A program made the translations under genes and the position numbers. The notes under the pieces were generated by a model, which was not told the DNA's origin, ran no database searches, and worked only from the letters and a program-made list of their open reading frames with translations. A DNA stretch of 64,000 bases from Deinococcales bacterium (lineage in GTDB: Bacteria; Deinococcota; Deinococci; Deinococcales; JAAFIG01). The stretch covers positions 108,782-172,781 of the forward strand of contig JANNVX010000041.1 of assembly GCA_031414595.1 (NCBI GenBank), given 5' to 3'. Of the stretch, positions 1 to 64,000 are shown one piece after another; the first letter of the stretch is position 1; each line of letters begins with the position of its first letter.

Positions 1-141
1 CTCGAGCGGATTGCTCTCTGCCCAACCGTTCTGAGGTGCAATGACTGCATAGCTTCTCGAGGCTTGACCCAGCACCACCCAATCAGCACTTAAAAGCAGC
101 GCCTTACAAGAACCCGTGCCAAGGTCAAGTCCTAGAAGCAT
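1..141 (-). CDS. FGGY-family carbohydrate kinase (xylulokinase-like), 5' part only, runs off the window
   Basis: Manual translation from the ATG at 141 gives MLLGLDLGTGSCKALLLSADWVVLGQASRSYAVIAPQNGWAESNPLE. GLDLGT..K and P..GWAE are FGGY N-terminal motifs. It follows the sugar ABC genes on the same strand. Confidence 0.85.
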   Translation of the reverse strand, partial: MLLGLDLGTGSCKALLLSADWVVLGQASRSYAVIAPQNGWAESNPLE

Positions 142-182
142 AAAAACAGAAAAAGAAAAACCCTAATGAATTATTTTTCAGT

Positions 183-244
183 GGGCAAGGCTTCTTGCCC
201 ATAAACGCGCACCTAACGGGCATGGTCGCATGCCTTGCCCCTAC
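183..244 (-). repeat. GTAG-type REP hairpin interrupted by a 38-nt mini-element (192-229)
   Basis: GGGCAAGGC|38-nt insert|ATGCCTTGCCCCTAC. Removing the insert restores a hairpin like the empty REP at 265-288. Confidence 0.85.
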
Positions 245-264
245 GGTTTAGAACAGCTTTTACC

Positions 265-288
265 GTAGGGGTGAGGCATGCCTCACCC
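265..288 (+). repeat. GTAG-type REP hairpin (empty), inverted partner of 183-244
   Basis: GTAGGGGTGAGGCATGCCTCACCC. Confidence 0.85.
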
Positions 289-366
289 TTTGCGGTCAAT
301 GATGATTCATTCCCAAATCGGGAAATTGATTTTAGATAAATCATAAACCTTCCTTTTTCCCTAGCA

Positions 367-1149: not shown

Positions 1150-1151
1150 AC

Positions 1152-2150: not shown

Positions 2151-2212
2151 ATTCACCCTGACTTTACTCTTTTTGGAGTGATTGAATCGCACTCGATGCT
2201 CGAGTGATTGAG

Positions 2213-2346: not shown

Positions 2347-3336
2347 TTAGTTGCCCCAGCAGTTGGCAAGTCCGAATGCGACATTCTTGCTACCAATACC
2401 GACCAAAGCACGCTTGGCAATTAAGGTCACGCCAGTGTCCACATAGCCCTTGGCTTTGACACCAGTCTTGGCGTATTTGACACCCGCAGCCACACCCAAA
2501 GCAGCCATTTTCAGTGGGTATTGTTGGCTGGTTGCCACAATCACGTTCTTGTCTACGTTACGAACGCCTTCACAGCCACCGTCTACGCTAAAAATAGCGG
2601 CGGTTTTCTTGGCAGCTTTAAGGGCTTGGAATGCACCTGCGGCGGCTGGTTCGTTGATCGTGTAAACCACGTTAATGTCTGGGTTTTTCTGCAAGCAGTT
2701 TTCCATGGCGGTTTGACCTTTGGCTTGGTCGCCGAAGGTATCTTGGCTGCATACAACTTGGGCAGTGGTGGCAAGGTCTGCTGTGTCTGCGTCTATGTTA
2801 TCTGCGCCTAAACCAGCCAAAAAGCCGTTGTGACGAGCAATCCCAACTGGATGACCAGGGAAAAGGTCGAGCATCGCAATTTTAAGGGTTTTGCCTTTGA
2901 GTTGGGCGGCGGCGTATTCACCAATCAGAACGCCAGCCTTAAAGTTGTCGGTAGCATAGAGTGCGTCTACGGCATCGGCTGGTTCGGTTGGGCTGTCAAG
3001 CGCAATCACTTGAACACCAGCCGCTTGGGCTTTTTTGATGGCTGGAACGATTGCCTTAGAATCTGATGGGGTAATCAGAATAGTTTGTGCGCCAGCCGCT
3101 ACAAAGTTCTCAATCGCAGCCACTTGCCCAGCGTTGTCACCGTCTTGCTTACCGGCAGCACTTAAGAATTTTGCACCCAAACGAGCCGCTTCTTTTGAAG
3201 CACCTTCTTTCATTTTGACAAAAAACGGGTTGGATTCGGTTTTGGTGATTAAACCAATGATTGGTGACTTGCCTTGGGCAAGTGCCAATGCCAAGGTGCT
3301 TACGCCAAGGGCAGCTAACAGAGCAATTTTACGCAT
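2347..3336 (-). CDS. frcB: Sugar ABC transporter substrate-binding protein (FrcB-like)
   Basis: Signal peptide; LITKTESNPFFVKMKEGA, VYTINEPAAAGA, SVDGGCEG and SQQYPLKMA are typical of FrcB. Confidence 0.85.
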   Translation of the reverse strand: MRKIALLAALGVSTLALALAQGKSPIIGLITKTESNPFFVKMKEGASKEAARLGAKFLSAAGKQDGDNAGQVAAIENFVAAGAQTILITPSDSKAIVPAIKKAQAAGVQVIALDSPTEPADAVDALYATDNFKAGVLIGEYAAAQLKGKTLKIAMLDLFPGHPVGIARHNGFLAGLGADNIDADTADLATTAQVVCSQDTFGDQAKGQTAMENCLQKNPDINVVYTINEPAAAGAFQALKAAKKTAAIFSVDGGCEGVRNVDKNVIVATSQQYPLKMAALGVAAGVKYAKTGVKAKGYVDTGVTLIAKRALVGIGSKNVAFGLANCWGN

Positions 3337-3412
3337 GGTGGTTCTCCTATTTTGAAAGAGGGCGAATGACCGAAAATCTGACGGATAATTGAACGCCTAA
3401 ATTACTCGTTCG

Positions 3413-12769: not shown

Positions 12770-13735
12770 TCAGTCATCCAGCGCGTAATTATGATTGCCC
12801 TGTAAGCCCAGCATTAGGTCTATGTTCTGAGCCGCAGCCCCAGATGCACCCTTGCCCAGATTATCGGCTCGAGCCACCAGCAGGGCTTGTTTTTTAGCGG
12901 GGTTGGCAAAAACCATAATTTCCATTTGGTTTGTCCCATTTAAGGTTTCTGGATTTAAGACCGCCTTGGCTGGGGCTTCCATCTCGAGCGGTAAAACCTT
13001 GATAAAAGGCTGTCCAGCATAACGTTCCTCGAGGATACTTTGGATTTCTAAAGCGGTTGGTTGTTTTGGCAAAGACGAAAGATGAATTGGGATTTGCACC
13101 AACATCCCTTTAAGCCATTTGCCTACGGCTGGCGTAAAAATTGGTTCGGTTGCCAGTCTCGAGTAGGCTGTGATTTCAGGCAAGTGCTTATGGCTTAGCG
13201 ATAAGCCGTAACCTCGGTATGCTCCTGCCAAATGATGCTGGCTGCCGCGTCCTTCAACCGCATCTATCAGTTGTCGTCCGCCACCACTGTAGCCCTGAAC
13301 GCCTTGAATACTTAACGGGTAATCAGTGGGAATCAAACCCGCATCCACCAACGGACGAAGCAGGGCAATCGCATTCTGGGCGTAACAACCGGGGTTTGCC
13401 ACAAAACGGGCTGCTTTTATGGCTGTGCTTTGTTCACCATTCAGTTCTGGAAAACCATAAACCCAATTTGGCGCAACGCGGTGGGCGGTGCTGGCATCTA
13501 AAACTCGAGTCTTGGGGTTGCTAATCATTTGTACGGCTGCCCTTGCTAGGTCGTCGTGCAGACATAAAACCGCTAAATCCACACTGTTCAGTAAGCGCTG
13601 CCGCTCGAGTTCGTCTTTGCGCCTTTCTGGGTCAATCGAAACCAATTCAAGGTCGGCTCGAGGCTCGAGACGCGCTCGGATTTGCAATCCGGTTGTGCCG
13701 GCTTCTCCATCAATATAAATGCGGGGCTTACTCAC
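12770..13735 (-). CDS. argC: N-acetyl-gamma-glutamyl-phosphate reductase (short type-2 form)
   Basis: [43 protein letters not shown] start at 13735 follows TACAAT. Confidence 0.9.
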
Positions 13736-15701: not shown

Positions 15702-16124
15702 ATCACTCACCCCCTTTTGTTTGAGTCAACGTACTTACCCCAAACTGCGATACGGGTTCTAGGGATACTTCCCGAGCCGCGCATTGAAGCGGAACAACTA
15801 TATGTAGGGGTTTAATGGGATTAAGCACCACAGAGAGTGTAGCATGTTTTTATCTTGTTGTGTGCAAGTTTTTGACAAAATTGTACTTACTCGAGATTGA
15901 AAAAAATAGACTTGAGATTGAAAAACAAATTTATAATGTCCTGTACAATTTTTTCTTTTGATTGCAAAAAATAACAAAAATAATACTTCTAAAATAATAG
16001 TATAAATATTATCACAATTTCAAGCGAATCTCGAGAATAAAAATAAAAATTTCGAGCCAAAAACACCTACTTTCAACTCGAGATTTACAAATTTTAGTTT
16101 TGAAATGCCCAATGCGGTAAATAC

Positions 16125-22215: not shown

Positions 22216-23040
22216 ATGAATCTAGCAGCCTTTATGGGCGAGTTCAAAGCCGAAGCCTACGACCACTTGGAAAAGTTGGATCAGGGCTTGTTGCAACTCG
22301 AGCGTGATCCAAGCAATAACCAACTTATTCGTGGTCTATTTTTAAGTATGCACACGATTAAAGGCGGCGCGAGTATGCTCGAGTTAAAGGCATTAAAGCA
22401 CCTGACCCATGCCTTTGAGGATGTGCTGGCGAGGCTACGTGACCACGGTGAGGCTTGTGATTCGAGTACCGCGACCTTATTGCTGAAGGCTGTGGACATG
22501 GTTCGTGAAATTGTGGACACCGACCCGAGCATGGAAACGATGTCGCCACCTGTCGAAGACATGACCAATAAATTGCGCCAACGTGCTAGTGGGGTGATTG
22601 TCACCCTCGAGCCAAGTGCTTCGGTCAGTGGGATTCAGGCTTCATTAGCCGACCTCGACCCGCCGATTGAGACCAAAGCTGCCACAAAATCCAATTTGGC
22701 ACTATTACTCGAGCCTTCCGAAACAGCCCGAAACGTCATGACCACCCAACTCGAGAGCGCTGGTTGGACAGTGGCGGGGTTTGCTTCGGCTACCGAAATT
22801 CAAAATCGTGTTGCCGAAGCAGGTTTATTGGTTTTGCCACTCGAGCCAAGCGGTGGGATAGATGGTTTAGCACTGGCGAGGGATTGGCGGGCATTTGGTA
22901 CAAAAACCCCGATTGTGATTACCGCCCTAGAATTTAGCGCTGCCCAAGAAACCGATGCCAAAACCCTTGGGGTGGCATGTGCGCCTAAACCAAGTTGGCG
23001 TGATTCGCATTTGACTGAACTTGCAAGGAGCTTGGTGTGA
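22216..23040 (+). CDS. CheA P1-like Hpt domain fused to a degenerate receiver domain
   Basis: F..EA.DHL, LF.SMHTIKGGA (phospho-His), HAFEDVL..LR; C-terminal receiver-like fold with no Asp at the phosphoacceptor position. Confidence 0.75.
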   Translation: MNLAAFMGEFKAEAYDHLEKLDQGLLQLERDPSNNQLIRGLFLSMHTIKGGASMLELKALKHLTHAFEDVLARLRDHGEACDSSTATLLLKAVDMVREIVDTDPSMETMSPPVEDMTNKLRQRASGVIVTLEPSASVSGIQASLADLDPPIETKAATKSNLALLLEPSETARNVMTTQLESAGWTVAGFASATEIQNRVAEAGLLVLPLEPSGGIDGLALARDWRAFGTKTPIVITALEFSAAQETDAKTLGVACAPKPSWRDSHLTELARSLV

Positions 23041-24005
23041 TCGAAGCGCGACGAATTTTAATCATCGAAGATAGTTTACTGATGCGTAACTTGTTGGTCG
23101 GTTTACTCGACGGGGCTGGTTACGGCGATATTCGAGCGGTCGGGACACTCGAGCAAGGACTGCGCTTATTGGGAATGCGAAGCGAACCTGGCGAGCAATT
23201 CAGTCTGATTTTAATGGATAAACTCCTGCCCGATGGTGACGGTATAGATGGCATCCGCGAAATCAGACAAATTCCGCACTTAACCGAAAAACCAATTATC
23301 ATGGTCACGGGTTTTGATGACCGCGAAACCCTGCGCGAAGCCTTTGACGCTGGGGCAAGTGACTTTATCAACAAGTCCTTTGATGAAACCGAATTGCTGG
23401 CTCGAGTCCGCAGCGCCCTGCGTTTAGATGCTGCCATCGAAGCCGCCAAGAGCCGCGAAGCCGATTTGCGGCGTTTAACCCGAGAACTCGAGAAGCTCTC
23501 CTACACCGATGGTCTAACCAAAGTGACCAATCGCCGTGGTTTTGACGCTGCCTTAGAACGGGCATGGGTTGAAAGTTATGAGCAGCGCAAACCCTTAAGT
23601 GTGGTGATGCTCGATGTCGATCATTTCAAAAAGTACAACGATGCCCTCGGACACCAACAAGGTGACGAGTGTCTAAAAGCCGTGGCTGCCGCCTTAGAAC
23701 AACAAGTCAATGCCAGTGGCGAAGCCCATATGTTGGCTCGCTACGGTGGCGAGGAATTCGCCGCAATTCTCCGCACCAATGCCAGTACCGCCCAGTATGT
23801 TTCCGAAAAACTCCGCTCGAGTATCCAAGAATTACAATTGGTACACCCCAACTCTACCGTTGGCAGTTTTGTCAGCATCAGTGTTGGTTTAACCACCGTT
23901 ATTCCAGATGAACGCAGCACAGCATCCGATTTACTGGCGGCGGCTGATTCGGCTTTGTACCAAGCTAAAAATACGGGTCGTAACCGTGTGGTGATGAAGT
24001 CTTGA
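23037..24005 (+). CDS. Response-regulator diguanylate cyclase (REC-GGDEF, WspR/PleD-like)
   Basis: ILIIEDS, LILMD..LPDGDG, DFINKS; DGLT...NRR, DVDHFKKYND, ARYGGEEF, ALYQAK..GRN. Confidence 0.92.
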   Translation: MIEARRILIIEDSLLMRNLLVGLLDGAGYGDIRAVGTLEQGLRLLGMRSEPGEQFSLILMDKLLPDGDGIDGIREIRQIPHLTEKPIIMVTGFDDRETLREAFDAGASDFINKSFDETELLARVRSALRLDAAIEAAKSREADLRRLTRELEKLSYTDGLTKVTNRRGFDAALERAWVESYEQRKPLSVVMLDVDHFKKYNDALGHQQGDECLKAVAAALEQQVNASGEAHMLARYGGEEFAAILRTNASTAQYVSEKLRSSIQELQLVHPNSTVGSFVSISVGLTTVIPDERSTASDLLAAADSALYQAKNTGRNRVVMKS

Positions 24006-44296: not shown

Positions 44297-44827
44297 ATGC
44301 GAATTGCCTTACTTTCAGATACGCACGGATTTATCGATGATGAAATCCTTGAACACTGCCGAGAAGCCGACGAAATCTGGCACGCTGGAGACATGGGTGC
44401 TAGGGCTGTGATGACTCAACTCGAGACTTTACAAAAACCAATTATTGCTGTCAGTGGAAATGTGGACAATCAGGCACTGCAACTCGAGTACCCCGAAGAC
44501 CAGCAATTTAGCAAAGAGGGGGTCAGTGTTTGGATACGCCATATTGTCGGGCATCCAAAACGTTACAACCCAGAAATTCTCGAGGTCTTACGCCAGCCAG
44601 CCCAGCGTCCGCAATTACTGATTTGTGGTCATTCGCACATCCTCGAGATTGCCAGAGATGCTTTTGGGGTGCTGTACATCAATCCCGGGGCAGTTGGACA
44701 TCATGGGGTACATCAAAAACGCACGATGGTACGGTTTAGTCTCGAGAACGGCAAAGTTTTGAATGTTGAAGCGATTGACTTTGGTACTCGAGGACGCAAG
44801 GCAAAGAATTCAAATCCACAATTTTAA
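44297..44827 (+). CDS. YfcE-like metallophosphoesterase
   Basis: LSDTHG, HAGD, GNVD, GHSH, INPGA. Confidence 0.88.
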   Translation: MRIALLSDTHGFIDDEILEHCREADEIWHAGDMGARAVMTQLETLQKPIIAVSGNVDNQALQLEYPEDQQFSKEGVSVWIRHIVGHPKRYNPEILEVLRQPAQRPQLLICGHSHILEIARDAFGVLYINPGAVGHHGVHQKRTMVRFSLENGKVLNVEAIDFGTRGRKAKNSNPQF

Positions 44828-49710: not shown

Positions 49711-52026
49711 TTAGCGCTGTGTGGGTTGTCCTAACAAACCAGCTTCGGGGTTTTGCATCAGGGTGCGCCAAGTTCCAGTCTCGAGGGAATAGGTTATTGC
49801 TCCATCTCGGTCGGTGCGAAACGCCAAAGGGCGGTATGGTTTTAGGCGTTCCAAAACATCTTTACTTGGGTGTCCGTAAGTGTTGTCTGCGCCGCTCGAG
49901 ACGACCACGGCTTTGGGTGTGGTACGACGCAAAAGTGTTTGGCTGGTGCTAAATCGGCTGCCATGATGCGCCAGTTTTAAGACATCTACTGCGCCCGGAT
50001 TCATCGTCTCTTCGACTTCGCTGGGCGCATCGCCTAAAAAAAGCAGACGCTTACCTTTGAACTCGAGACTGAATGCCACCGAATTGATATTGTCGTCCTC
50101 CAAATTAAAAGGTGGGGCTGGATGCAAGAATTGAATCGTGGCTGTACCAAGTTTCCACTGCATTCCACGCCCAACCACTCGAATTGGAATGTTACGGCTT
50201 TTGGCAGAAGCAATCATTTCATCCCAAACAGTATCTTCGCCTGTTGGCTTATCATGCCCAATCATCAGGCTCGAGACTGGAAAATGACGCAGTACCGCAT
50301 TCAGCCCCTCGATGTGGTCAGCATCACCGTGTGTAGCAATCACGGTCAGGCTTTTGACCCCAAGGCTACGCAATGCCGGCACAACTACCCTTGCGCCCAT
50401 ATCAAAGTCCGATTGGGGTGTTCCACCACCATCCACAAGAATATCGCCAACGGGCAATCGAATCAGGGTGGCATCGCCTTGTCCAACGTCCAAGTAAATA
50501 ATTTCGGCTCGAGAACGATTGGGTAATGCTGTGACCAACACCGATGCCAGCATAATTGCCAGCATTTGATACGGACGCAACCAACCTTGCAGTGCCGCGT
50601 AAATAGCCATCACACTGGCATAAAACGCCACATAACCCAGTGTGGAAACACTGCCCCACTCGAGAACAGGTGCATTAGAAAAAAACTTTGCACCCTCGAG
50701 CATGAGCCAAGCCAAATGTTGGATGACCAAGTTCACAATCCAACCTGCCGAGCCAAGCAGCCCCGCGATAAAACTCAGAATGACAAGCGGCAACATTAGC
50801 AGTTCTGCAAACAAATTACTGATTGGAGAAATGAGGGGAATTGCGCCAAAACTTGAGGCGCTTAATGGCAAAGTCAGTGCTTGAGCAGCAAGGGTCGTGA
50901 CCAGCACACCAATTACCCAGAACTTGACTCGAGAAAAAGTCAGGAATTTTAAGCCCCAAAGATGGACGAACCTAGGGTTTAAGTCGTTTTCATCTGGGCT
51001 TTTAAGGCGCAAGACCGCAAGAATTGGCAACACAAAAAAGACCATGCCCAGTACCGCCAAATACGAGAGTAGCCAGCCTAAATCTGCCAGCCAAGCCGGT
51101 TGCCAAAGCAGCGTCAGAACAGCACTTAAACCAATCGTGGGTAAGACCTCGAGTCTGCCACGCCCTAACCAACCCGTGACCAGCACAGCTAAACCCATGA
51201 GAATTGCTCTCGAGACACTTGGCGATGCCCCAACCACTGCCCAGTAAGACAGCAGCACCACAATCAGCACTGGAAAACGCCAGAGCATCAAACCCCGAAG
51301 CGCAAACGATAAAGCCAAGACGATGATGCTCACTTGCTGACCGCTAAGCGCCATGATGTGAGCTAAACCGCTTTTTGCAAAGACATCACGCCAAGCTGTA
51401 CCATCCTCGGATACTGGAATACCGTTTAATTCATCGGGGTCGCCAAGCGCCACCCCAGTCATCAGGGCGGCTTCTCGAGGTTGCAGACCAACCCGCACTC
51501 CCGAACGCACCCACGCCCGAGTTGCCCCCAAGATACCGAACTCGAGTGCAACGACTTCTTTGGCTTTGAAGATATACCGCGCCCCTCGAGACAACATCCA
51601 CGCTCCAAGGTCAAAGACACCCGGATTCCTAAACCACTTTGGGCGCTCGAGTTTGCCTGTAATGCGGTATGCCCCCATCTCGAGGGCTGGTTTAACCCGC
51701 AAAAACACCCGAGCAGCCCCAGTGCCAAAAAAACGCCCATCATAATCTCCGCTTAGCGTAATGGTTTTTCCAATAAACGGCTCGAGGTTATCGGGCAGCA
51801 CTCGGGTCACATGACTTCGCCACCAAGCCAAAGGGCAAAGCAGTAAAGCCACAGCCAAAGCGTATCGAATGGCTTGTGGGAACTTAGATAAAAGGGCTGG
51901 CAGCGCCAAGGTAGCTACAGCGAACGCAGCCCAAAATGGTAATTCTAAACGCTCGAGCAGCACCCCAAACACCACACTGAATGCCCCAAAAACAGGGAAG
52001 TTCAGCAGGCTCGAGGGTTTAAGCAT
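49711..52026 (-). CDS. comEC: DNA internalization competence protein ComEC/Rec2
   Basis: GLAHIMALSG, SPSV.RA..M, LSY; MBL domain LDVGQGD, THGDADH, HHGS, YGHP. Confidence 0.93.
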   Translation of the reverse strand: MLKPSSLLNFPVFGAFSVVFGVLLERLELPFWAAFAVATLALPALLSKFPQAIRYALAVALLLCPLAWWRSHVTRVLPDNLEPFIGKTITLSGDYDGRFFGTGAARVFLRVKPALEMGAYRITGKLERPKWFRNPGVFDLGAWMLSRGARYIFKAKEVVALEFGILGATRAWVRSGVRVGLQPREAALMTGVALGDPDELNGIPVSEDGTAWRDVFAKSGLAHIMALSGQQVSIIVLALSFALRGLMLWRFPVLIVVLLSYWAVVGASPSVSRAILMGLAVLVTGWLGRGRLEVLPTIGLSAVLTLLWQPAWLADLGWLLSYLAVLGMVFFVLPILAVLRLKSPDENDLNPRFVHLWGLKFLTFSRVKFWVIGVLVTTLAAQALTLPLSASSFGAIPLISPISNLFAELLMLPLVILSFIAGLLGSAGWIVNLVIQHLAWLMLEGAKFFSNAPVLEWGSVSTLGYVAFYASVMAIYAALQGWLRPYQMLAIMLASVLVTALPNRSRAEIIYLDVGQGDATLIRLPVGDILVDGGGTPQSDFDMGARVVVPALRSLGVKSLTVIATHGDADHIEGLNAVLRHFPVSSLMIGHDKPTGEDTVWDEMIASAKSRNIPIRVVGRGMQWKLGTATIQFLHPAPPFNLEDDNINSVAFSLEFKGKRLLFLGDAPSEVEETMNPGAVDVLKLAHHGSRFSTSQTLLRRTTPKAVVVSSGADNTYGHPSKDVLERLKPYRPLAFRTDRDGAITYSLETGTWRTLMQNPEAGLLGQPTQR

Positions 52027-53613: not shown

Positions 53614-53661
53614 AAACCAGAAGCCCCTCGAGTGCATTTAGACTCGAGGGGCTTCTGGTTT
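53614..53661. terminator. Long hairpin, probable bidirectional terminator
   Basis: AAACCAGAAGCCCCTCGAGT / ACTCGAGGGGCTTCTGGTTT, 20-bp perfect stem between convergent units. Confidence 0.75.
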
Positions 53662-55820: not shown

Positions 55821-56213
55821 ATGTCTAACAATCGTCTCGAGTCCCTAGGTTTCAAACCCACCGTCGTTGCCTCCACCAGTGTTAGCAATTTAGAAAACAG
55901 CATTGAGTGGTACTCAGAAAAACTTGGGTTTGAGTTAATCTATAAAGTCGAAGAAATTGGTTGGTGCGAAATGACCACCCCAGTTACAGGTATCACGATT
56001 GGCTTATCGCAAGTCGAAAATCCGCAAGTCCAAGGTACAGTTCTGACTTGGGAAGTGACCGATGTTGCCCACGCCAGAGCCTTACTCGAGCAAGCTGGGG
56101 TAAAATTTGTAGGCGAGACCAATACCATTCCGAACCTTGTTATGCTGGCTAGTTTCTATGACCCAGACGGCAATACTTATATGCTTTCTCAAACTCTTGC
56201 TCAGCCTTCATAG
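55821..56213 (+). CDS. VOC/glyoxalase-family protein
   Basis: VSNLE.SI.WY...LGF, V.DV......L...GV, FYDPDGN; AAGGAG RBS. Confidence 0.88.
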   Translation: MSNNRLESLGFKPTVVASTSVSNLENSIEWYSEKLGFELIYKVEEIGWCEMTTPVTGITIGLSQVENPQVQGTVLTWEVTDVAHARALLEQAGVKFVGETNTIPNLVMLASFYDPDGNTYMLSQTLAQPS

Positions 56214-59200
56214 TTTGTCTCGAGCCATTTTTTTCTTAGCACCCAAGATTCGCTAACCTCGAGCGGTTTACCTTGGCAAAGCGCTAAATTGACCTCGAGC
56301 GGTTCGCCAATTTGCACCACTTGGCTGAGTCTTAGGGCAATTAAATCAGCGTTTTGATTATCACCCAACCGCCTGAGTGCTTTGACCTCGAGATGGTGAT
56401 GCAATTTAGGGGCATGAAGTCCGCGCCAATAGTTATTTTGTTGGCGTATTAGAATGGCGTTTCTAGCGTATTGGGCAGCATTTTCCCAGTCGTTTAAGCC
56501 AACACTGGCAGCGCACAGATTCGATTCAATATAATTGCCGTAGCGCTGCTCGTTTTTTAACAGTTCTGGAATACGTTCTCTTGCCTCGAGCAAGATATTT
56601 TTGGCTTCTAAAAAGCGGTTCTGCTCGAGCAGCATTAAAGACTGGGCAAATTCAAATTCAATCGCCATACGTGGTTGGGCTTTATGGCGTAACTCAAAGG
56701 TTTTATTACATAGGGCATAGGCTTCGTTAAACGCACCAGTCTCGAGCAAAGGATATGCCAAATAGACGGCTGCCATTCCTATAAAAATAGGGTTGTCGTC
56801 TATTTGTTGTTTAATGGCTAAAGCGCGTCTTGCATAAGAAGTCGCATCTTGGTAAAAACCAGTGTTGGTCTGACAAAATGCCAGATTTTCAGTGTAGTAC
56901 GCCATCGTGTCACTGATTGGCTGCAACTCAAAGCGTTCAAGAATATCACGCCAGTGGTGAGCGGCAATTTGCCAGTCGCCGCGAGACTGATAAGCATCGG
57001 CAAGTGTGACCAGTGTCCAACGTTCGTGGTCTGGACTGATTTTTTTAGCTCGAGCCACCAATTCTAAAATCGGCTCGATAGGGTGATTATCGCCTGTGGT
57101 TTGTCTTTGAAAATTCAGTTTCGACATGGCGGTTTCCATCGCACCTTTTTCGTCTTCTAAGCCTTCAAAAATAACCGCCGCTTGGTCGTATAAATCCTCT
57201 ACCTTTTCTATTTTAGACCATGTGTAGGTGTTGGCTGCAAAAACCAACGAACGCCCCTCGAGTCGTAAATCCCCTAGTTCTCGAGCTAAGGCTAAGGCTT
57301 GTGCCGCTAATCCTGTGGCTTTTTCAGATGGTTCATTTAAGGTCACATAAATTGAATTGAGCGAACCAAATAAATGCCCAATTTCGTCGGTGGTTAGCCC
57401 CAAGCCAAGCACGGTGTTATCTGGATGTTGGGTTAAAATCTGCCGTGCCGACTCGAGATGGGTAGCGGCATCACGCCAAGCATAATTTCGTCCAGCTTCA
57501 TTGGCTGCCTGCATCGAAAGACGCACCGCTTCGAGCCAAGACCGTGCGCCTATCGCATGACCTGCCCGTTGTGCTGCACTGCCATAAGTTCGGGTCAAGG
57601 CGAGTTTTTGCAGTGCCTGTAAACGCGGCGCACTGAGGCGTTGCAGCGCCGTTTCACGCAGTTTATCGTGCGAAAAAGCAAAGCGCACCACATCCAAACC
57701 AAAGGCGGGAAGCTCGAGTAAAACCCGAGCGCGAAGGCATTCCTCGAGAGCGGCTAAAACATCTGATTCAGCAATTTGGCTGACTTCTACAACATCGATA
57801 AAACTAAAACCTTGTCCCAGTACCGCCCCAGCCTCGAGCAGTAAGCGTGCCGCACCGCTCAGACGGGCAAAACGGGCTTCAATCACCATCCTTACCCCCG
57901 GAGCGGTGCGTGGATTTTCCTCGAGTTGAACTTTCCAACCCTCGCGCCCAGCGACTAAACCGCCGCTTTCGACAAGGCTACGCAGGGTTTCGGCAATGTA
58001 CAAGGGCTGTCCATTGGTTTCGTGGTACAACCAATTTAGCAAGGCTTCGGGTGGTACACCAACATCCTCGAGCAAGCGCAGAGTTTCATCCCTAGAAAAT
58101 GCCTCCAAGGGCAATAACTCGAGGCTGCAATCGCGCCCAAGTTGGGTCAGCCATGTTTCGAGGCTGCTCATGGCTTCACTGCGAACCGTGACCAGCAGTA
58201 AAATTGGGATTTTTTCGAGAACAGCACGGCGCAAGGTAAATAGCAACACTTCAAGCGAGGCTGCATCTGCCCATTGTGCGTCATCGAGCATCCAAAGCAA
58301 ATGCCCAAGCTGCTTAGTGAGTTTTACAACAGCCTCAAAAACCCTCGAGCGCCCAAGTGATTCATCCGACACAGGGGCTGGTAAATTTGGTAACTCGAGC
58401 AGTTCTGGCAGCAGCCGCGCCAATTCTGCCAACCAAACACTCGAAAGCCGCGTCTCGAGATGCCCAACCCGCCGCAGGGCATCGGCAATGCACTGATACG
58501 CTAGTGCTGCCCCTTCAAATGCCCTTGCCGAAATCACAGTCGCATCTCGAGCCGCCGCCCAAGCCAAGAATTCTTGGGCGAGGCGGGTTTTACCAATGCC
58601 CGGTTCGCCACTTAAAACCACCACCCGAGGCGAACCTTGGGCAGTGCTGTGAAAACCCACCACAAGGCGCTGAAACTCGAGGACTCGCCCGACCAGCCGC
58701 GACTCGAGCAGCAGACTCGGTAAGCTCGGCACACGCCCAGACTGGACAGGCTCGAGCCGCAGGGCATCTGCCAGTGCCAAGGTTTCGGGTACGGGTAAAA
58801 CCCCCATTTCTTGTTCAAGCCGAGCCTTGAAATTTTCAAAAACCCCAAGTGCTTTGGAGCGCTGCCCAAGGTTGGTCAAAAAAACAATCAGACGCTGATG
58901 CGCCAGTTCCGACAAAGGTTCAAGCCGAGACCACGCCTCGAGAACCGCCAAACTCGGTTCAGCCACTTCTAAGGTGCTTAATGCAGCTTGTAAAATCTGA
59001 CCACGAATCGTCTCGAGCCAATCCTCAGCTTCGGGTGCATCGGGCAGACTAATCCCCTCAAGAAAATCACCCTGCGAGTTTAGTACCATCTCGAGCGAAC
59101 CAGATAAAACTGTTCGCACATCACAAGAAAAATCCTCGAGCCAGAGGTTGTGGCGGTCAGACTGCACCGCCTCGCCAAAGCTGTAGCGCAAACTCGAGAG

Positions 59201-59386
59201 AGCGTTTCGCAAACTGTTTTTGGCATTCGGTGAATCCGCCCAAAGCAGCAAGGCTAGGCGCTGGCGTGAAACCCGACCCTCGAGCGCCAAAACTGCCATT
59301 AGTACAAGTGCTTTACGGGTCTTTGGGCGTACCTCGAGACCATTTAATTTTAGTACAGGATTTCCTAAAAAGACCAACTCGAGCAT
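56201..59386 (-). CDS. SARP/BTAD transcriptional regulator with STAND-type ATPase and TPR-like C-terminus
   Basis: wHTH (SR..LA.LLW), BTAD (EPLSE.AH..L), LVGR..E, GEPGIGKTRL, LDDAQWAD, T.GQPL, F.HD. Confidence 0.85.
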   Translation of the reverse strand: MLELVFLGNPVLKLNGLEVRPKTRKALVLMAVLALEGRVSRQRLALLLWADSPNAKNSLRNALSSLRYSFGEAVQSDRHNLWLEDFSCDVRTVLSGSLEMVLNSQGDFLEGISLPDAPEAEDWLETIRGQILQAALSTLEVAEPSLAVLEAWSRLEPLSELAHQRLIVFLTNLGQRSKALGVFENFKARLEQEMGVLPVPETLALADALRLEPVQSGRVPSLPSLLLESRLVGRVLEFQRLVVGFHSTAQGSPRVVVLSGEPGIGKTRLAQEFLAWAAARDATVISARAFEGAALAYQCIADALRRVGHLETRLSSVWLAELARLLPELLELPNLPAPVSDESLGRSRVFEAVVKLTKQLGHLLWMLDDAQWADAASLEVLLFTLRRAVLEKIPILLLVTVRSEAMSSLETWLTQLGRDCSLELLPLEAFSRDETLRLLEDVGVPPEALLNWLYHETNGQPLYIAETLRSLVESGGLVAGREGWKVQLEENPRTAPGVRMVIEARFARLSGAARLLLEAGAVLGQGFSFIDVVEVSQIAESDVLAALEECLRARVLLELPAFGLDVVRFAFSHDKLRETALQRLSAPRLQALQKLALTRTYGSAAQRAGHAIGARSWLEAVRLSMQAANEAGRNYAWRDAATHLESARQILTQHPDNTVLGLGLTTDEIGHLFGSLNSIYVTLNEPSEKATGLAAQALALARELGDLRLEGRSLVFAANTYTWSKIEKVEDLYDQAAVIFEGLEDEKGAMETAMSKLNFQRQTTGDNHPIEPILELVARAKKISPDHERWTLVTLADAYQSRGDWQIAAHHWRDILERFELQPISDTMAYYTENLAFCQTNTGFYQDATSYARRALAIKQQIDDNPIFIGMAAVYLAYPLLETGAFNEAYALCNKTFELRHKAQPRMAIEFEFAQSLMLLEQNRFLEAKNILLEARERIPELLKNEQRYGNYIESNLCAASVGLNDWENAAQYARNAILIRQQNNYWRGLHAPKLHHHLEVKALRRLGDNQNADLIALRLSQVVQIGEPLEVNLALCQGKPLEVSESWVLRKKWLETNYEG

Positions 59387-59524
59387 GGCAAAGTATAAGC
59401 GCACAAGTATAGGCACAGAATTTAACGATCCATTTAACATTTTTTTATTGCTCGGTTTGTACAGTCTGACTCAGTGCTTGACTCGGTGAACCTCCGTGAC
59501 CCGAGTTAGGTGCAGGAGGAAATC

Positions 59525-60534: not shown

Positions 60535-62409
60535 ATGCCGTCTTTTTCTTCTTCACGCGAACGCTCTTGGCTGGCTTTTAATCGTCGGGTGCTGTTACAA
60601 ACCACCCGCTCGGATGTTCCACTGCTCGAGCGGGTGCGCTTTTTTAGCATCTTCCAAAATAACTTAGATGAATTTTTTACGGCTCGCGCCCAAGCCAGTC
60701 AGCAGATTGCTAAAGCGCCTAAAGCCACTGCCACCAGTCAAAAAATTTATCTGGATTACTTGGCAGCCGCTTCCGAGCAACAAACCAAAGCCCTAACCCT
60801 GCTCGAGCCAGTGCTGCTCGAGTTACACCAAGCGGGGATTCATCTGCTCGAGCCGTCAGATTTAAGCACCGACGAGCAAAATTACTTCGGCGCGTATTTA
60901 GCCGAAAGCATTGCCCCTGCCACCGATGTGCTGCCCCCCGAAAGTCTGACCGCCCTCGACTCGAGGGCGCTGTATTTGGCGGCTGGACTCGAAACCTTAG
61001 AGGCGATTATTCGTGTGCCAGACCGTTTAGCACATTTTATTGCTGTGCCGGGGCGCGAAAAAAGTTTTGTGCGCTTAGAAACCCTAATGCAGTGGCGCAA
61101 CGACCTTTTTTTACCCGAAGCTCGCCCAATGTTTGCGCTGCGTTTAACCAGACGTGCCAATATCGAACTTAAAGGTCAAATAGACTGGGAAGACGTGGCT
61201 CATGCTTTAGAGAGCCGCCTAGATGGTGGGGTCAGTCGGCTCGAGATACAAACAGGTTTTCCGTGGCTGGGGACGGTCAAAAACGCCTTGGGATTGTGGA
61301 ACGAAGAAATCAGCACCGCCACGATGCTCGATTTACGCTGCTTTGATACAATTGCCAATTTGCCCGTGCCGAGCCTCAAATTTAAGCCCTTTGTGCAACG
61401 TAAACGCATCAAGTTTCACACCCATCCGTTTGGCTTTATCGAAAAAAAAGATATGGCGCTTTACCACCCGTCGGACGACTACAACACCGTGGTGCATTTT
61501 GTCGAAGCGGCTGCCATAGACCCCGAAGTGGATAAAATTAGGGCTACGCTCTACCGTCTTGGGCGAGATAATCCAATTGCCGAAGCGCTGCTCTTAGCTG
61601 CCAAAAACGGCAAAAACGTAGCGGTCTTTCTCGAGGGTCGAGCGCGGTTTGATGAACTCGCCAATCTCTACTGGTCTTTACGCTTTAATGCTGGTGGGGT
61701 GCGGGTCTTACCCTATCCACAAGACCTCAAAGTTCATGCCAAAGCCTTGTATGTGCGGCGCAAAGGCAAGGGATTTGTGCATCTTGGCACGGGCAACTAC
61801 AACCCCGCCACTGGCAAGTTATATACCGACCTGAGTTTATTATCTGCCAGTAAACGCCTGACCAAAGATGCCTTAGAGTTCTTCACAGCTTTAGAAGAAA
61901 ACCGCCTACCCAAGCTCGAGTGGATGAAAGTCGGTACACAAGCCCGAGAAACCCTGATTGGGCGAATTCTCGAGGAAGCACACCCAACAGGGCATATCAT
62001 TCTTAAACTCAATCACCTGACCGACCCAAGTGTTTTAGAATCGCTCGAGCAAGCTGCCCAAGCTGGGGCAAAAGTTGAACTGATTATCCGCAGTACCCTG
62101 ACTTTAATTCACCCTAAATTTAAGGCTCGCAGTCTGGTGGGGCGCTTTTTAGAACACGCTCGGATTGCTGCTTTTAAGCGCAACGGCGATTGGGAAGTCT
62201 GGGCGGGCAGTGCTGACTGGATGCCACGCAACTTTGAAAAACGCTTGGAGCTTGTCTTTCCGATTCTGGACAAAACCGTGCGGACACGGGTCTTGAAATT
62301 ACTTCGCGCTCAACTCGAGGATGATGTTAATGCCTTTAGTCTGACCGCCAAAGGCACAGAAAAAGCCTTTTGGGGTGGCACCAAGGACTCACAGAAATTA
62401 CGCTTATGA
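60535..62409 (+). CDS. ppk1: Polyphosphate kinase 1 (compact form)
   Basis: RE.SWLAFN.RVL, NLDEFF, TLYR, ARFDE..N, KVHAK, HLGTGNYN, GRFLEH.R, SADWM.RN. Confidence 0.93.
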   Translation: MPSFSSSRERSWLAFNRRVLLQTTRSDVPLLERVRFFSIFQNNLDEFFTARAQASQQIAKAPKATATSQKIYLDYLAAASEQQTKALTLLEPVLLELHQAGIHLLEPSDLSTDEQNYFGAYLAESIAPATDVLPPESLTALDSRALYLAAGLETLEAIIRVPDRLAHFIAVPGREKSFVRLETLMQWRNDLFLPEARPMFALRLTRRANIELKGQIDWEDVAHALESRLDGGVSRLEIQTGFPWLGTVKNALGLWNEEISTATMLDLRCFDTIANLPVPSLKFKPFVQRKRIKFHTHPFGFIEKKDMALYHPSDDYNTVVHFVEAAAIDPEVDKIRATLYRLGRDNPIAEALLLAAKNGKNVAVFLEGRARFDELANLYWSLRFNAGGVRVLPYPQDLKVHAKALYVRRKGKGFVHLGTGNYNPATGKLYTDLSLLSASKRLTKDALEFFTALEENRLPKLEWMKVGTQARETLIGRILEEAHPTGHIILKLNHLTDPSVLESLEQAAQAGAKVELIIRSTLTLIHPKFKARSLVGRFLEHARIAAFKRNGDWEVWAGSADWMPRNFEKRLELVFPILDKTVRTRVLKLLRAQLEDDVNAFSLTAKGTEKAFWGGTKDSQKLRL

Positions 62410-63273
62410 CTCGAGACCACGAATTTGTTCTGGGCTAATTTGGTATTTTGTACCGCACCAATGACAAATCACTTCTTGCCCACCAGCTTGTATCATCTCT
62501 TGGCGTTCGGTCTTTGAAAAATAGACCAGACTGGCTATGGAACGCTCAACACTGCACCGACATTTCCACTCGAGGGCGAGGGCATCTTCGCGCAATTCTA
62601 GGTTTAAGCCGTGCAGTACGTTGTGAACGGCGTTCAGCAAGCCACCATTTCGCATGGCTGTGGTCAGTTGCCCAAGACCCGCAATGTTCTGCTCGAGGCG
62701 ACTCAGCACTTGGTCTGTGACATTGGGCATGGCTTGAATCAGAATGCCGCCAGCCTGCGTCACACCGCTTAGGTCAAGATGCACCCCAAGCAGCACCGCA
62801 CTGGGGATTTGCTCGGATTGCAACAAATAAGCAGCTAAGTCATCGGCGATTTCACCCGAAACCAATGGCACACTGCCCGTGTACGGTTCGGTGTTCTCGA
62901 GTAAGCGCATCACCGCAAAATCACCGTTTTTACCAACCAGACCGCCAACATCGAGTTTGCCATCTGATACTCGAGGCGGCAAGTCGGCTTCTGGGTATTT
63001 GACATACCCTCTGGCTGTTCCGTCGCGTCCACCTTCGGCAACAATATAGCCAATTGCACCATCCCCTTGAATGCGTAAAGTTACGCGGTCAGTATCGCGT
63101 TTAGAAAGCACTTGACTTAACAACAGCGCCCCTGTTAAAGAACGCCCAAGCGCAGCCGTAGCGGTGGCACTTAAATTATGACTGGCTCGAGCCGAAGCCA
63201 CCAATTGGGTGGTGTCGGCTGCAAAAACCCGCAAGGTTAAACCAGCCGCATGACCCGCGATTAAGTAACTCAT
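62404..63273 (-). CDS. hslO: Redox-regulated chaperone Hsp33
   Basis: ALGR.LT, SGEIA.DL..YL.QSEQ.PS, Zn motif CRCS...CHWC. Confidence 0.93.
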   Translation of the reverse strand: MSYLIAGHAAGLTLRVFAADTTQLVASARASHNLSATATAALGRSLTGALLLSQVLSKRDTDRVTLRIQGDGAIGYIVAEGGRDGTARGYVKYPEADLPPRVSDGKLDVGGLVGKNGDFAVMRLLENTEPYTGSVPLVSGEIADDLAAYLLQSEQIPSAVLLGVHLDLSGVTQAGGILIQAMPNVTDQVLSRLEQNIAGLGQLTTAMRNGGLLNAVHNVLHGLNLELREDALALEWKCRCSVERSIASLVYFSKTERQEMIQAGGQEVICHWCGTKYQISPEQIRGLES

Positions 63274-63809
63274 AGCCTTGCCTCGAGTTGGGTTTTGAAC
63301 TGCAAAAAGTCTTGGTCAGAAAGGACAGGTTGGGCGTTACGGGCTTCTAAGTTCTGTTCAAGCTGAACCCAAGAAACACAACCCGCGTACTCTGGGGTTT
63401 CCTCGAGCAGTACGGGTTCGCAGGTGTAGACCCGTAGCAAAAGCGCATGAACAAAAGGCTTATTGCGGTAATGGTATTTGCGTTCTAAGGCATCAGCAGT
63501 CAGGGCATTGTGCGTCTCGAGTTGACGAATGATTGCTAAATCCTCGAGTTTCCAAGTTTTTTCGACCACGGCAAAAGAGGACAGTTCGACACTGCCAAAA
63601 TTGGGATTTTCACGCAGCAAATCCTGATATTCGGGGCGTAATTCGGCTTCGTTTTGGTGCAAAAAAGTTTTGTAGAACCAAAATTTCTGATGCTCGAGGC
63701 TAAATTCACCGCGTTGTTCGACAATCCCGCCTTTACGCATCAGCAATGCCACACGTCCCAATTCAAGCGCTCGAGTTTGCACATCCCATTCTTTTAAGGC
63801 AACATTCAC
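63270..63809 (-). CDS. DUF1802-family protein
   Basis: ALKEW, L.RKGGI.E, F.HQ, LRVY, Y.GC.SWV.L; GTG start is a best guess. Confidence 0.8.
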   Translation of the reverse strand: MNVALKEWDVQTRALELGRVALLMRKGGIVEQRGEFSLEHQKFWFYKTFLHQNEAELRPEYQDLLRENPNFGSVELSSFAVVEKTWKLEDLAIIRQLETHNALTADALERKYHYRNKPFVHALLLRVYTCEPVLLEETPEYAGCVSWVQLEQNLEARNAQPVLSDQDFLQFKTQLEARL

Positions 63810-63921
63810 AGCCAAAAAATACCATGTTGAAACTTGTACTTTAGTCGGATGTAACACTCCTTTAGGATTTGTCCGTAAATAACTTCCCTATTTGGAAATG
63901 ATGAAACATTGTTTCCTAGCA

Positions 63922-63995
63922 GGACAGACACAGGGGTCTGTCCCTACAAAATCCATAAAAATACGTCAGGTAGGGGCGGACCCCCGTGTCCGCCC
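63922..63995. repeat. Inverted pair of GTAG-type REP hairpins
   Basis: GGACAGACACAGGGGTCTGTCCCTAC (63922-47) and GTAGGGGCGGACCCCCGTGTCCGCCC (63970-95). Confidence 0.85.
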
Positions 63996-64000
63996 TGTGA

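Follow-up and report, generated by a model that had tools for sequence, protein, structure and literature searches.

A 64,000-nucleotide stretch of a Deinococcales genome (referred to as the window) is densely populated with the palindrome CTCGAG, raising the question as to what force keeps the word so abundant. The genome (G000) is that of an uncultured Deinococcus relative; its assembly has 120 contigs totaling 4.49 Mb, is 94% complete, and includes the DdrB gene, a marker of the Deinococcus-type lineage. Genes were called as greedy longest open reading frames, with no trained gene finder. A literature search found no paper describing CTCGAG over-representation.

CTCGAG is over-represented in genes and spacers

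The over-representation of CTCGAG in this genome is real. The 369 copies in the window compare with 14.5 predicted from base composition and with 8.0 ± 2.9 (maximum, 16) in 200 dinucleotide-preserving shuffles, a 46-fold excess over the latter. The 62 open reading frames called in the window hold 331 sites against 32.9 ± 4.9 (maximum, 45) when synonymous codons are shuffled within each gene, an excess of 10-fold, and in intergenic DNA it is 36-fold. An earlier hand count of 23 copies in bases 1 to 6000 agrees exactly with the position list, and the region at 56 to 59 kb, also said to be dense, has 26. Genome-wide there are 23,235 copies (5.2/kb, about one per 190 bases), and CTCGAG is the top-ranking hexamer at 65 times its order-1 Markov expectation, with the next palindromic hexamer at 1.9 times. 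The densities in coding and noncoding DNA are 5.15/kb and 5.42/kb, and all three codon phases are used, as the initial annotation had reported for the window, with 12,226 sites read as CTC-GAG, 4,072 as xCT-CGA-G, and 4,371 as xxC-TCG-AG.

A plausible concern is that the word is a side effect of nucleotide composition or of codon or amino-acid usage, or else belongs to a dispersed mobile repeat. The Leu-Glu phase CTC-GAG is the most frequent, accounting for 59% of coding sites, and GC-rich relatives are rich in both CTCGAG and the reverse word GAGCTC through codon usage (1,455 to 2,803 and 1,113 to 2,680 copies, respectively, in genus g9). However, the excess over the dinucleotide, synonymous-codon, and intergenic controls, the mere six occurrences of GAGCTC, and the rarity of the codons concerned outside CTCGAG refute this explanation, and we see virtually no chance that it is correct. 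The initial annotation had argued that codon usage alone is insufficient and had named disappearance of the excess under shuffling as the result that would speak against it; the excess survives both the dinucleotide and the synonymous-codon shuffles. We also reject a dispersed repeat of the REP or MITE type, because octamers containing CTCGAG occur at 0.98 to 1.06 of expectation, without any extended or flanking consensus, and divergence is at background one base outside the word.

The force maintaining CTCGAG overrides protein sequence. Leu-Glu dipeptides are approximately doubled, with 20,390 in the genome versus 9,169 expected and versus 8,996 Glu-Leu; CTC-GAG encodes 12,237 of these Leu-Glu pairs although CTC provides only 8% of Leu codons elsewhere. 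At the 13 Leu-Glu places encoded by the word in the GH38 alpha-mannosidase gene (Table 1), orthologues outside the family mostly carry other residues, and outgroups differ at 8 to 11 of the 13.

Table 1. CTCGAG-related features of the window
Feature	Position	Strand	Observation	Basis
Whole window	1..64000		369 CTCGAG, 5.8/kb, 4-20 per 2-kb bin	Position list and 200 dinucleotide shuffles
Periplasmic sugar-binding protein gene ("frcB")	2347..3336	-	Zero CTCGAG in 990 bases	
CTCGAG-G-CTCGAG pair	13657..13669		Left copy private to this genome; three relatives read TGCGAA or TGCGAT	
AT-rich spacer	15890..16082		Three CTCGAG (15890, 16030, 16077); CTTGAG and TTCGAG variants adjoin	Sequence read directly
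Site	22708..22713		CTCGAG here but not in three close relatives; two more distant congeners have it at the matching position	
Site	23553..23558		TTAGAA in this genome, G001, and G004; CTCGAG in G005 and three distant congeners; short-patch allele sharing	
Site	28291..28296		Copy lost here through one base change (CTGGAG); the three close relatives all read CTCGAG	
Site	31986..31991		ATCATC in this genome, G001, and G004; G005 and three distant congeners read CTCGAG and share a linked change at -3	
GH38 alpha-mannosidase gene	44810..47788	-	20 CTCGAG, 13 encoding Leu-Glu	
ComEC competence channel gene	49711..52026	-	18 CTCGAG	Competence (PF03772), Lactamase_B
tRNA gene	53520-53590			65.5 bits
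Hairpin right after tRNA gene	53620..53655	+	CTCGAG in each arm (53627, 53643)	Inverted repeat
STAND/BTAD regulator gene	56201..59440	-	32 CTCGAG, 9.9/kb; highest density among long window genes	

Several individual sites had been singled out previously. The three copies assigned to AT-rich intergenic DNA are indeed located in a spacer, and the hairpin described as a tRNA terminator has the word in both arms (Table 1). The gene named frcB was described as free of CTCGAG and has no site; normal-GC genes lacking the word genome-wide are mostly solute-binding protein genes. A histone-like gene, mentioned alongside frcB, was not found among the 36 of 62 window open reading frame calls scanned with Pfam.

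The conserved unit is exactly six bases

In comparisons with two close relatives, divergence at the six CTCGAG positions is 0.26 to 0.43 of what codon position predicts, but 1.01 at position -1 and 1.06 at position +6, and conservation is confined to the six bases themselves. The wider flanks are at 1.0 to 1.4 of expectation, such that the sites lie in faster-evolving stretches. Codons are identical in four genomes far more often inside CTCGAG than outside it (CTC, 80% versus 30%; GAG, 81% versus 46%; CGA, 85% versus 45%; TCG, 84% versus 56%). CTCGAG is also lost more slowly than control words, with 411 of 432 sites retained, whereas 179 words matched for composition kept 1137 of 1324 (p=3e-8); noncoding copies were kept in 26/30, 22/24, and 15/26 cases, with control values of 0.70, 0.67, and 0.42, respectively. 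We note that an identical conservation pattern is expected under selection on each site.

Density is shared across a family, positions are not

The suspicion that other Deinococcota are similarly enriched is borne out. All 19 genomes of the family, representing five genera, have 4.3 to 6.8 CTCGAG/kb; other families of the order have a milder excess or none, and in same-order genera with 3- to 4-Mb genomes CTCGAG exceeds GAGCTC by 3- to 40-fold. The five genera are alike in density but unlike in positions, and only one of the 13 Leu-Glu sites of the GH38 alpha-mannosidase gene is common to G000 and its orthologue in G013. The sites are therefore continually re-made.

Spacing within the genome is near-random (coefficient of variation, 0.99), as expected if every site evolves independently; 4-kb windows hold 20.8 ± 5.6 copies, with an index of dispersion of about 1.5. 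Gaps of 50 to 200 bases are in mild excess, those of 400 to 1000 bases are below random (0.67 to 0.86), and no gap between copies in the 4.49 Mb exceeds 4,941 bases. Low densities (1 to 1.7/kb) are restricted to 79 kb of AT-rich accessory islands.

This strikingly uniform density, with its shortage of longer gaps, and the conservation of CTCGAG in both coding and noncoding DNA are what might be seen if every site were under selection for a role in the cell, such as binding an abundant protein of the nucleoid or of repair that organizes or re-assembles the chromosome; Xu et al. 2018 reach such a conclusion for HIP1 from similar evidence (PMC5861425). Nonetheless, we regard this as decidedly improbable. 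The benefit per site among 23,000 should be tiny, yet amino acids are altered, positions are not kept between genera, the overall spacing is near random, and there is no known candidate binding protein.

Substitutions and short patches

Among hexamers aligned gap-free in all four genomes, to which the scoring was confined, the single-lineage events listed number 36, with 15 gains and 21 losses, and every one is a substitution that leaves length unchanged. Of the 21 losses, 20 are single-base changes; in this genome, single-base losses are seen at 36606 and 50852 as well as at 28291..28296. These events support the spread of CTCGAG through substitution and not insertion. For four of the five lineage-specific 'gains' that could be checked, more distant congeners have CTCGAG at the corresponding position, in patches of approximately 10 to 30 bases, and the allele-sharing patch at 31986..31991 spans roughly 18 to 34 bases. 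Such short-patch allele sharing at motif sites shows that recombination moves CTCGAG sites.

Eleven short clusters of private differences are shared with distant congeners; three of these clusters install CTCGAG, including the only clusters of three and five sites, and none destroys it; with about 0.08 installations expected per cluster, we estimate p≈0.05 from these small counts. For the three clearest patches the direction is ambiguous in that spread of a non-motif allele through three close genomes also fits the data, and parsimony prefers re-installation in two of the three. Gains exceed those of control words 7-fold (13 versus 1.83), but this figure is too high, since re-import favors abundant words over rare ones. 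Still larger estimates of gain are raised further by mis-polarised losses.

We conclude that a directional force acting on exactly six bases, in any frame and in spacers, keeps CTCGAG at about 5/kb, and that it acts more slowly in acquired islands. Of the explanations considered, hexamer-directed, short-patch biased gene conversion is the likeliest for this force, a tentative proposal that we consider possible but short of probable. Two homologous DNA molecules differing at a CTCGAG site would pair, being either genome copies or incoming and resident DNA; for this uncultured lineage we assume both polyploidy and natural competence, by reference to Deinococcus and Thermus. The mismatched patch would then be resolved toward the strand with the full palindrome, guided by a putative protein that would recognize CTCGAG as a symmetric dimer. 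Existing copies would thus be protected, lost ones re-installed from relatives, and new ones spread. Under strong protein constraint or strong codon selection, the conversion force would lose out. We infer that a bias in conversion, rather than selection at the level of the organism, is responsible, and that a dimeric reader protein presumably exists.

Methylases, nucleases, and one-off variants

No agent of the proposed conversion was found: searches gave no Vsr homologue, no XhoI-type nuclease, and no family-wide methylase family. Conversion of this kind would work like Dcm/Vsr repair in Escherichia coli, in which very-short-patch mismatch resolution favors one word and raises CCWGG. However, CTCGAG differs from that system in its far larger excess, and the Vsr model (PF03852) has no match in this 94%-complete genome, although it matched 3 of 14 control genomes. 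The deamination products CTTGAG and CTCAAG, whose depletion had been proposed as a check, are at 1.30 and 1.32 times expectation from an order-1 Markov model built on the motif-masked genome, and we reject a Vsr-type repair bias on these grounds. On the same basis TTCGAG and CTCGAA are at 1.9 to 2.0 times and CCCGAG and CTCGGG at 1.7 to 1.8 times, and only transversions at positions 2 to 5 are low (0.42 to 0.75 times). A target of XhoI/PaeR7I-type restriction is similarly rejected: the nuclease model (PF04555) has no match in the genome, and also none in any control genome, and CTCGAG is enriched and not avoided.

The initial annotation offered a methylation-coupled mismatch-repair ratchet as one interpretation and proposed searching for a cognate methyltransferase together with Vsr. 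In Elhai's form of this model, a CTCGAG methylase marks the strand with the word and mismatch repair corrects the other toward it, ratcheting on replication errors. There are precedents for such an enzyme: CTCGAG m6A methylases with no listed nuclease modify 99.5% of sites in Meiothermus ruber, 94.1% in M. chliarophilus, and 94.6% in Marinithermus hydrothermalis (PMC4752239); these bacteria are of the same class as G000, and the word methylated is identical. Blow et al. 2016 report methylation there, not over-representation, and name CTCGAG in the main text only for Nocardia (PMC4752239). G000 itself encodes over 20 DNA methylases of unassigned specificity, two with a TaqI_C domain, so that methylation may still be involved. 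Each cyanobacterial HIP is paired with a cognate methylase according to Elhai 2015 (PMC4390886), and the excess of CTCGAG over GAGCTC in same-order genera would also fit.

Nevertheless, the 19 family genomes have no methylase family in common. TaqI_C-type enzymes are present in 6 of the 19, G000's own TaqI_C enzyme is found in 2 of the other 18, and N6_N4 methylases (PF01555) are missing from 3 of the 19, including one single-contig genome. As putative stand-ins for the published Meiothermus and Marinithermus enzymes, with which they may or may not be identical, we used a family of about 600 amino acids, present in 1 of 18 family genomes, and a TaqI-like family, present in none of the 18 but in all 28 genomes of a genus without CTCGAG excess. 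In genus g13, CTCGAG density is equal in genomes with (4) and without (13) the family of about 600 amino acids. Single-step gains are not clearly raised (3/203 versus 0.53% for controls; p=0.095), and methylases, by protecting 23,000 sites, may have followed from the excess instead of causing it. With one-off variants not depleted and no Vsr match or shared methylase, the expected parts of the ratchet are missing and it is distinctly unlikely, whereas the HIP-like label attached to the word in the same annotation stands.

CTCGAG compared with uptake sequences and HIP1

A further explanation, also raised in the initial annotation as an uptake or recombination signal, is that CTCGAG is a DNA-uptake or self-recognition word, a role now proposed for HIP1 too. 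Competence or a step following uptake would prefer DNA containing it, and kin alleles with the word would replace those without it by molecular drive. The USS and DUS words of Pasteurellaceae and Neisseriaceae are family-wide, rarer in acquired DNA, tolerated at variable protein positions, and paired in terminators; CTCGAG is likewise common to a whole family (and, more weakly, across the order), poor in acquired islands, located in faster-evolving stretches, and paired in the tRNA hairpin. The ComEC gene within the window shows that the lineage possesses DNA-uptake machinery, and CTCGAG alleles are held in common with distant congeners. However, USS and DUS are 9 to 12 bases long, not palindromic, and evenly spaced at about 1/kb, whereas CTCGAG is a six-base palindrome, about five times denser, and spaced nearly at random. 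At 5/kb, fragments from kin already contain multiple copies and an extra site would hardly alter uptake, yet each site has the six-base footprint. To our knowledge, DNA uptake by Thermus and Deinococcus is described as having no sequence preference, which also counts against this explanation, and we view it as rather unlikely, even with the methylation-dependent stimulation of transformation reported for HIP1 (PMC13756078).

Among known systems, a close parallel to CTCGAG is HIP1 (GCGATCGC) of the cyanobacteria. HIP1 (PMC5861425; PMC13756078) is a short palindrome tens-fold over-represented in genes and spacers that spreads by substitution, is conserved between genomes, belongs to a transformable phylum, and has no agreed function. 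The HIP-like label is apt in that CTCGAG is also a short over-represented palindrome, in all frames and spacers, conserved beyond control words and borne by substitution, and its excess thus appears as a HIP1-like phenomenon outside the cyanobacteria, in an uncultured Deinococcus relative. It is not HIP1 proper, which has eight bases and a GATC core (CGATCG); the word here has six bases, a TCGA core, and a host in another phylum of the Deinococcus type indicated by DdrB, and CGATCG occurs three times with GATC at 0.14 of expectation. Unlike HIP1, CTCGAG has no conserved cognate methylase that we found, and its six positions are equally protected, whereas deviations from HIP1 concentrate at the outer bases according to Elhai (PMC4390886). 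GGCGCC of Calothrix PCC 7103 and other alternate cyanobacterial HIPs are likewise hexamer palindromes resulting from lineage-specific word replacement, but each is confined to single strains whose genome also encodes a cognate methylase (PMC4390886), whereas CTCGAG characterizes a whole family of five genera. In abundance, HIP1 exceeds one copy per gene in some cyanobacteria, compared with about one CTCGAG per 190 bases here, and its distribution is reported to be periodic at 10 to 90 kb, both according to Xu et al. 2018 (PMC5861425).

Abundance of CTCGAG in coding and noncoding DNA

A position list of the 64-kb window contains 369 copies of CTCGAG, with 14.5 expected from base composition and 8.0±2.9 (maximum 16) seen in 200 dinucleotide-preserving shuffles; 26 copies lie in the 56 to 59 kb segment, and the 23 copies counted by hand in the first 6 kb by the initial annotation match the list exactly. 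The source genome (G000; 4,488,778 bases in 120 contigs, 94% complete), in which the window spans positions 108782-172781 of contig C41, has 23,235 copies (5.18 per kb), and the word ranks first there among all hexamers. Using a greedy longest-ORF call, which placed 89.5% of the genome in 4,115 ORFs, we found 20,703 copies in ORFs, compared with 2,058±58 after synonymous codons were shuffled within genes; the corresponding values for the window are 331 and 32.9±4.9, and intergenic DNA of the genome holds 2,537 copies compared with 70.8±8.9 after segment shuffling. The excess, which the initial annotation had exposed to disproof by shuffling, thus survives both dinucleotide-preserving and synonymous-codon shuffles, and an artefact of composition is excluded. 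Densities are 5.15 per kb in coding and 5.42 per kb in noncoding DNA, all three codon phases are in use (12,226, 4,072, and 4,371 copies), and the spread is very even, with 20.8±5.6 copies per 4-kb window and no CTCGAG-free gap longer than 4,941 bases anywhere in the genome. Depletion of the hexamers one base away from CTCGAG, which had been proposed as a check, was not seen in G000.

Pairs of the word separated by exactly one base occur 101 times in G000, compared with 17 to 49 times for spacers of 2 to 6 bases, and the four bases are about equally used as the spacer.

CTCGAG is a conserved six-base unit

Octamers containing CTCGAG occur in G000 at 0.98 to 1.06 of expectation, which shows that no longer repeat has the word as its core. 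We aligned the window with three close relatives, of which G005 and G001 are 92-93% identical to it and G004 85%, with 36,547 positions aligned in all four genomes. Divergence from G005 and G001 at the six motif positions is 0.26 to 0.43 of the codon-position-matched expectation, and is 1.01 and 1.06 of expectation one base outside the motif on either side; this footprint, together with the octamer frequencies, rules out a longer true motif.

Synonymous positions within CTCGAG are frozen. Where the residue is conserved in all four genomes, codon identity inside the motif is 80% for CTC, 81% for GAG, 85% for CGA, and 84% for TCG, compared with 30%, 46%, 45%, and 56%, respectively, outside it. 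Where three of the genomes have the word in common, it is retained by the remaining one in 411 of 432 cases, compared with 1137 of 1324 for 179 composition-matched control words (p=3e-8), and noncoding copies are retained in 26/30, 22/24, and 15/26 cases in three pairwise comparisons, where control hexamers give 0.70, 0.67, and 0.42. Direct selection of the word for a nucleoid function could also be read into such retention, but we consider this explanation improbable.

Distribution in the order

CTCGAG was counted in 201 genomes of the order, and GAGCTC, the same word reversed, served as a built-in control.

Counts of CTCGAG and of the control word GAGCTC per genome in groups of the order
Group	Genomes	CTCGAG	GAGCTC	Remarks
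G000's family, five genera	19/19	12,028-35,442 (4.3-6.8 per kb, rounded sizes)	0-568	GC 46-65%, from sampled loci
Genus g7	51	26-942		GC 69-74% in two sampled loci
Genus g9	28	1,455-2,803	1,113-2,680	~2.2 Mb
Genera g13, g22, g24	24	3,336-16,086	278-4,391	2.4-4.7 Mb
Family f2	53	514-11,363

The excess forms a graded series along the order: there is none in Deinococcus-like and Thermus-like genera, it is mild in Meiothermus-like genera, and it is extreme in G000's family. In genus g9, CTCGAG is not in excess beyond codon usage. Because site positions differ between genera while the density stays, the sites must be continually re-made. Viral contigs dense in CTCGAG are, among the matches listed, mostly GC-rich with GAGCTC also common, and are uninformative on phages of G000's lineage.

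Methylases and nucleases

A methylation ratchet acting on replication errors is one conceivable source of the excess, and the word is methylated in other bacteria. CTCGAG carries m6A at 99.5% of sites in Meiothermus ruber (Blow et al. 2016, PMC4752239, supplementary files 3 and 4), at 94.1% in M. chliarophilus, and at 94.6% in Marinithermus hydrothermalis (Blow et al. 2016, PMC4752239). In the available tables of that paper, the CTCGAG enzymes are type II methylases without a nuclease listed alongside, and M. silvanus has no CTCGAG methylase entry; the available main text names CTCGAG for Nocardia only.

A cognate methylase was sought by homology queries over 19 to 201 genomes and by methylase family scans, and none that tracks the CTCGAG excess was found by these. 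A TaqI_C-type enzyme of G000 is present in only two of the 18 other family genomes, and a PDB sequence search with it gave generic methylase matches only; another gene of TaqI_C type, which represents only a fragment of a large type IIG enzyme, is present in 3/18, and an HsdM-like gene is patchy, with its best matches in scattered genera. Among all 19 family genomes, the TaqI_C domain is found in six, and N6_N4 methylases are absent from three, one of them a single-contig assembly. A TaqI-like methylase is present in 28/28 genomes of genus g9, which lacks the excess, and in 0/18 in G000's family, and a family of ~600-aa methylases is found in 1/18 in G000's family and, in other families, in 14 genomes; in genus g13, CTCGAG density is equal in four carriers and 13 non-carriers of the latter. 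No Vsr homologue was found in the 94% complete G000, and a model for XhoI-family nucleases had no G000 match, although it also matched no control genome. With no methylase tracking the word in these searches, we regard the methylation ratchet as improbable, to the same degree as selection for nucleoid function.

The g9 TaqI-like proteins are ~400-460 aa long, with 51-58% identity to the query, and four copies have an in-frame stop. G000 itself has more than 20 DNA methylase genes plus ScaI-, TdeIII-, and NgoPII-type restriction genes, and with these goes an extreme avoidance of most other short palindromes. About 40 of the 64 palindromic hexamers fall short of 0.3 of expectation, GGCC occurs 152 times with 13,951 expected (0.011), GATC is at 0.14, and the rare hexamers include TGCGCA (2 copies), CGATCG (3), GACGTC (3), and GAGCTC (6). 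All four RTCGAY words are also rare (26-89 copies, compared with 500-1,400 for other NTCGAN).

Gains, losses, and short patches

Presence of the word was scored in the four close genomes (digits in the order G000, G005, G001, G004). Pattern 1111 is seen 137 times, 1110 41 times, and 0001 11 times; losses in a single lineage (0111, 1011, and 1101) number 3, 11, and 7, and gains (1000, 0100, and 0010) number 4, 5, and 6. Losses result from a single-base change in 20 of 21 cases. With the word required to be absent from all three other genomes, there are 13 gains for which the ancestor can be deduced, compared with 1.83 expected from control words, and ten of them need at least two changes; we do not take this ratio at face value, because an abundant word is re-imported more often than a rare one. 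An earlier estimate (27 of 252 one-off sites gained, 8.8 times control) was withdrawn and replaced, as majority-rule polarising counts shared losses as gains, an error that hits abundant words hardest.

Five gains can be aligned to the more distant congeners G003, G006, and G007 (75-78% identical, with 15-22% of the window covered), and for four of them one or more of these congeners has CTCGAG at the corresponding position. In three of the five, every one of the congeners carries it, and linked changes in the flanks place it within patches of ~10-30 bases. These gains thus reflect alleles that are shared, through recombination or as old polymorphism, rather than newly created, and on this ground we rejected de novo writing of the word as the source of the multi-base gains. 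Among 11 short clusters of private differences matching the distant congeners, three install CTCGAG, including the only ones with three and five sites, and none removes it, a suggestive pattern, though the numbers are small. A rough tally of imports per site relative to the distant genomes, too small to decide the matter, gives ~4/~35 installing and 1/~20 removing the word. Import could also be biased by a USS-like drive at the uptake step, which we think unlikely.

Effects on proteins, and genes poor in the motif

Leu-Glu dipeptides number 20,390 in G000, compared with 9,169 expected from amino-acid frequencies and 8,996 for Glu-Leu, and 12,237 are spelled CTC-GAG; elsewhere, CTC accounts for 8% of Leu codons and GAG for 20% of Glu codons. 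The window's GH38 gene was compared among 13 family members, which have 19 to 33 Leu-Glu in it with 7 to 10.7 expected. Of G000's 13 such sites, 7 to 11 hold other residues in four orthologues that belong to two of the order's other families, and one is in common with G013, a member of another genus of the same family.

Only 13 regions of G000, AT-rich and totalling 79 kb, drop to 1 to 1.7 copies per kb, and the six scanned include a surface-polysaccharide cluster, an RHS toxin locus, and a transposase. Genes of at least 900 bases without CTCGAG number 28 (4.5 expected), most of them AT-rich; 11 have normal GC, and six of these encode ABC-transporter solute-binding proteins. They include the window gene named frcB in the initial annotation, correctly reported there as lacking the word. 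The EF-G gene has 2.8 copies per kb, and two small ORFs just upstream, putatively rpsG and rpsL by position alone, have one and zero. This pattern fits the earlier remark on highly expressed genes, expression being presumed.

Locations of features in G000 (window positions, or contig and positions)
Sequence	Positions	Feature
Window	2347-3336 (-)	frcB, solute-binding protein, normal GC; no CTCGAG
C15	16597-17895	Solute-binding protein, normal GC; no CTCGAG
C88	209398-210516	Solute-binding protein, normal GC; no CTCGAG
C88	1497-2558	Solute-binding protein, normal GC; no CTCGAG
C55	10896-11954	Solute-binding protein, normal GC; no CTCGAG
C70	24538-25566	Solute-binding protein, normal GC; no CTCGAG
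C14	21001-41000	Locus L417, low-motif AT-rich island
C78	4-432	EF-Tu N-terminal part
C21	4-432	EF-Tu N-terminal part
Window	13657-13669	CTCGAG-N-CTCGAG, example
Window	14629-15132 (+)	DdrB homologue (PF12747, 124 bits)
Window	182-346	Dispersed noncoding repeat
Window	9535-9759	Dispersed noncoding repeat
Window	12614-12817	Dispersed noncoding repeat
Window	32087-32128	Dispersed noncoding repeat
Window	33507-33586	Dispersed noncoding repeat
Window	35922-36037	Dispersed noncoding repeat
Window	37010-37082	Dispersed noncoding repeat
Window	52614-52817	Dispersed noncoding repeat

The solute-binding genes are 990-1,299 bases long. In locus L417, the gene for a 3,646-aa RHS-repeat protein that includes a PT-HINT domain comes after a SIR2-domain gene and before SUKH-type immunity-like genes.

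Mechanism and comparison with other palindromes

These facts call for a force that sees exactly six bases, is blind to reading frame and coding status, acts site by site, changes residues at variable positions, yields to constraint where genes are conserved or probably highly expressed, and has lasted through five genera. Because the force is six-base and frame-blind and the word is shared in short patches, we think biased short-patch gene conversion favouring the palindrome the most likely mechanism; this is a tentative preference, and the data do not tell it apart from per-site selection. A more specific and more doubtful possibility is that CTCGAG is the target of an as yet undescribed sequence-directed gene-conversion system, a word-installing drive without a cognate methylase, which would act on short patches when genome copies recombine with one another or with DNA arriving from kin. 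If so, the drive would have rewritten ~3% of bases and thousands of dipeptides across a whole bacterial family, and a single general process of transformable bacteria, as yet undescribed, would have cyanobacterial HIP1 and CTCGAG as two independent instances.

For thirty years, to our knowledge, cyanobacteria have been the only known source of highly iterated palindromes, with a ratchet, selection, and an uptake signal still in dispute as the cause. No report of CTCGAG over-representation in Deinococcota was found in the literature searched, whose coverage stops short of subscription journals. The initial annotation had called the word HIP-like, and it shows four of six listed HIP features (over-representation, occurrence in all frames and spacers, spread by substitution, and conservation between genomes), the list being completed by a cognate methylase and long-range periodicity. 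The word is distinct from HIP1 itself. The nearest known examples, from the available parts of the sources, are HIP1 and the alternate HIPs of cyanobacteria (PMC4390886, PMC5861425, PMC13756078). CTCGAG adds a case that is independent, much denser, and from a different phylum. New here are the six-base footprint, the order-wide census with its built-in control, the negative test of a methylase link against published methylomes, and the evidence of site movement by short-patch allele exchange. The graded excess along one order offers a comparative handle on cause, and direct tests are possible in culturable relatives whose excess is milder and whose CTCGAG methylases are known. In these genomes the word also skews codon usage, dipeptide statistics, and the prediction of terminators, and XhoI-type cloning or restriction of their DNA would be unusual.

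Other features of the genome

DdrB is a single-strand-binding repair protein typical of Deinococcus-type bacteria, and the 504-base gene for its homologue in the window has six CTCGAG copies. Contigs C78 and C21 start with identical EF-Tu N-terminal parts (equal score), and duplicated tuf genes evidently broke the assembly there. Short noncoding segments of the window have counterparts of 75-100% identity at dozens of places in the three close relatives and resemble dispersed MITE-type repeats.
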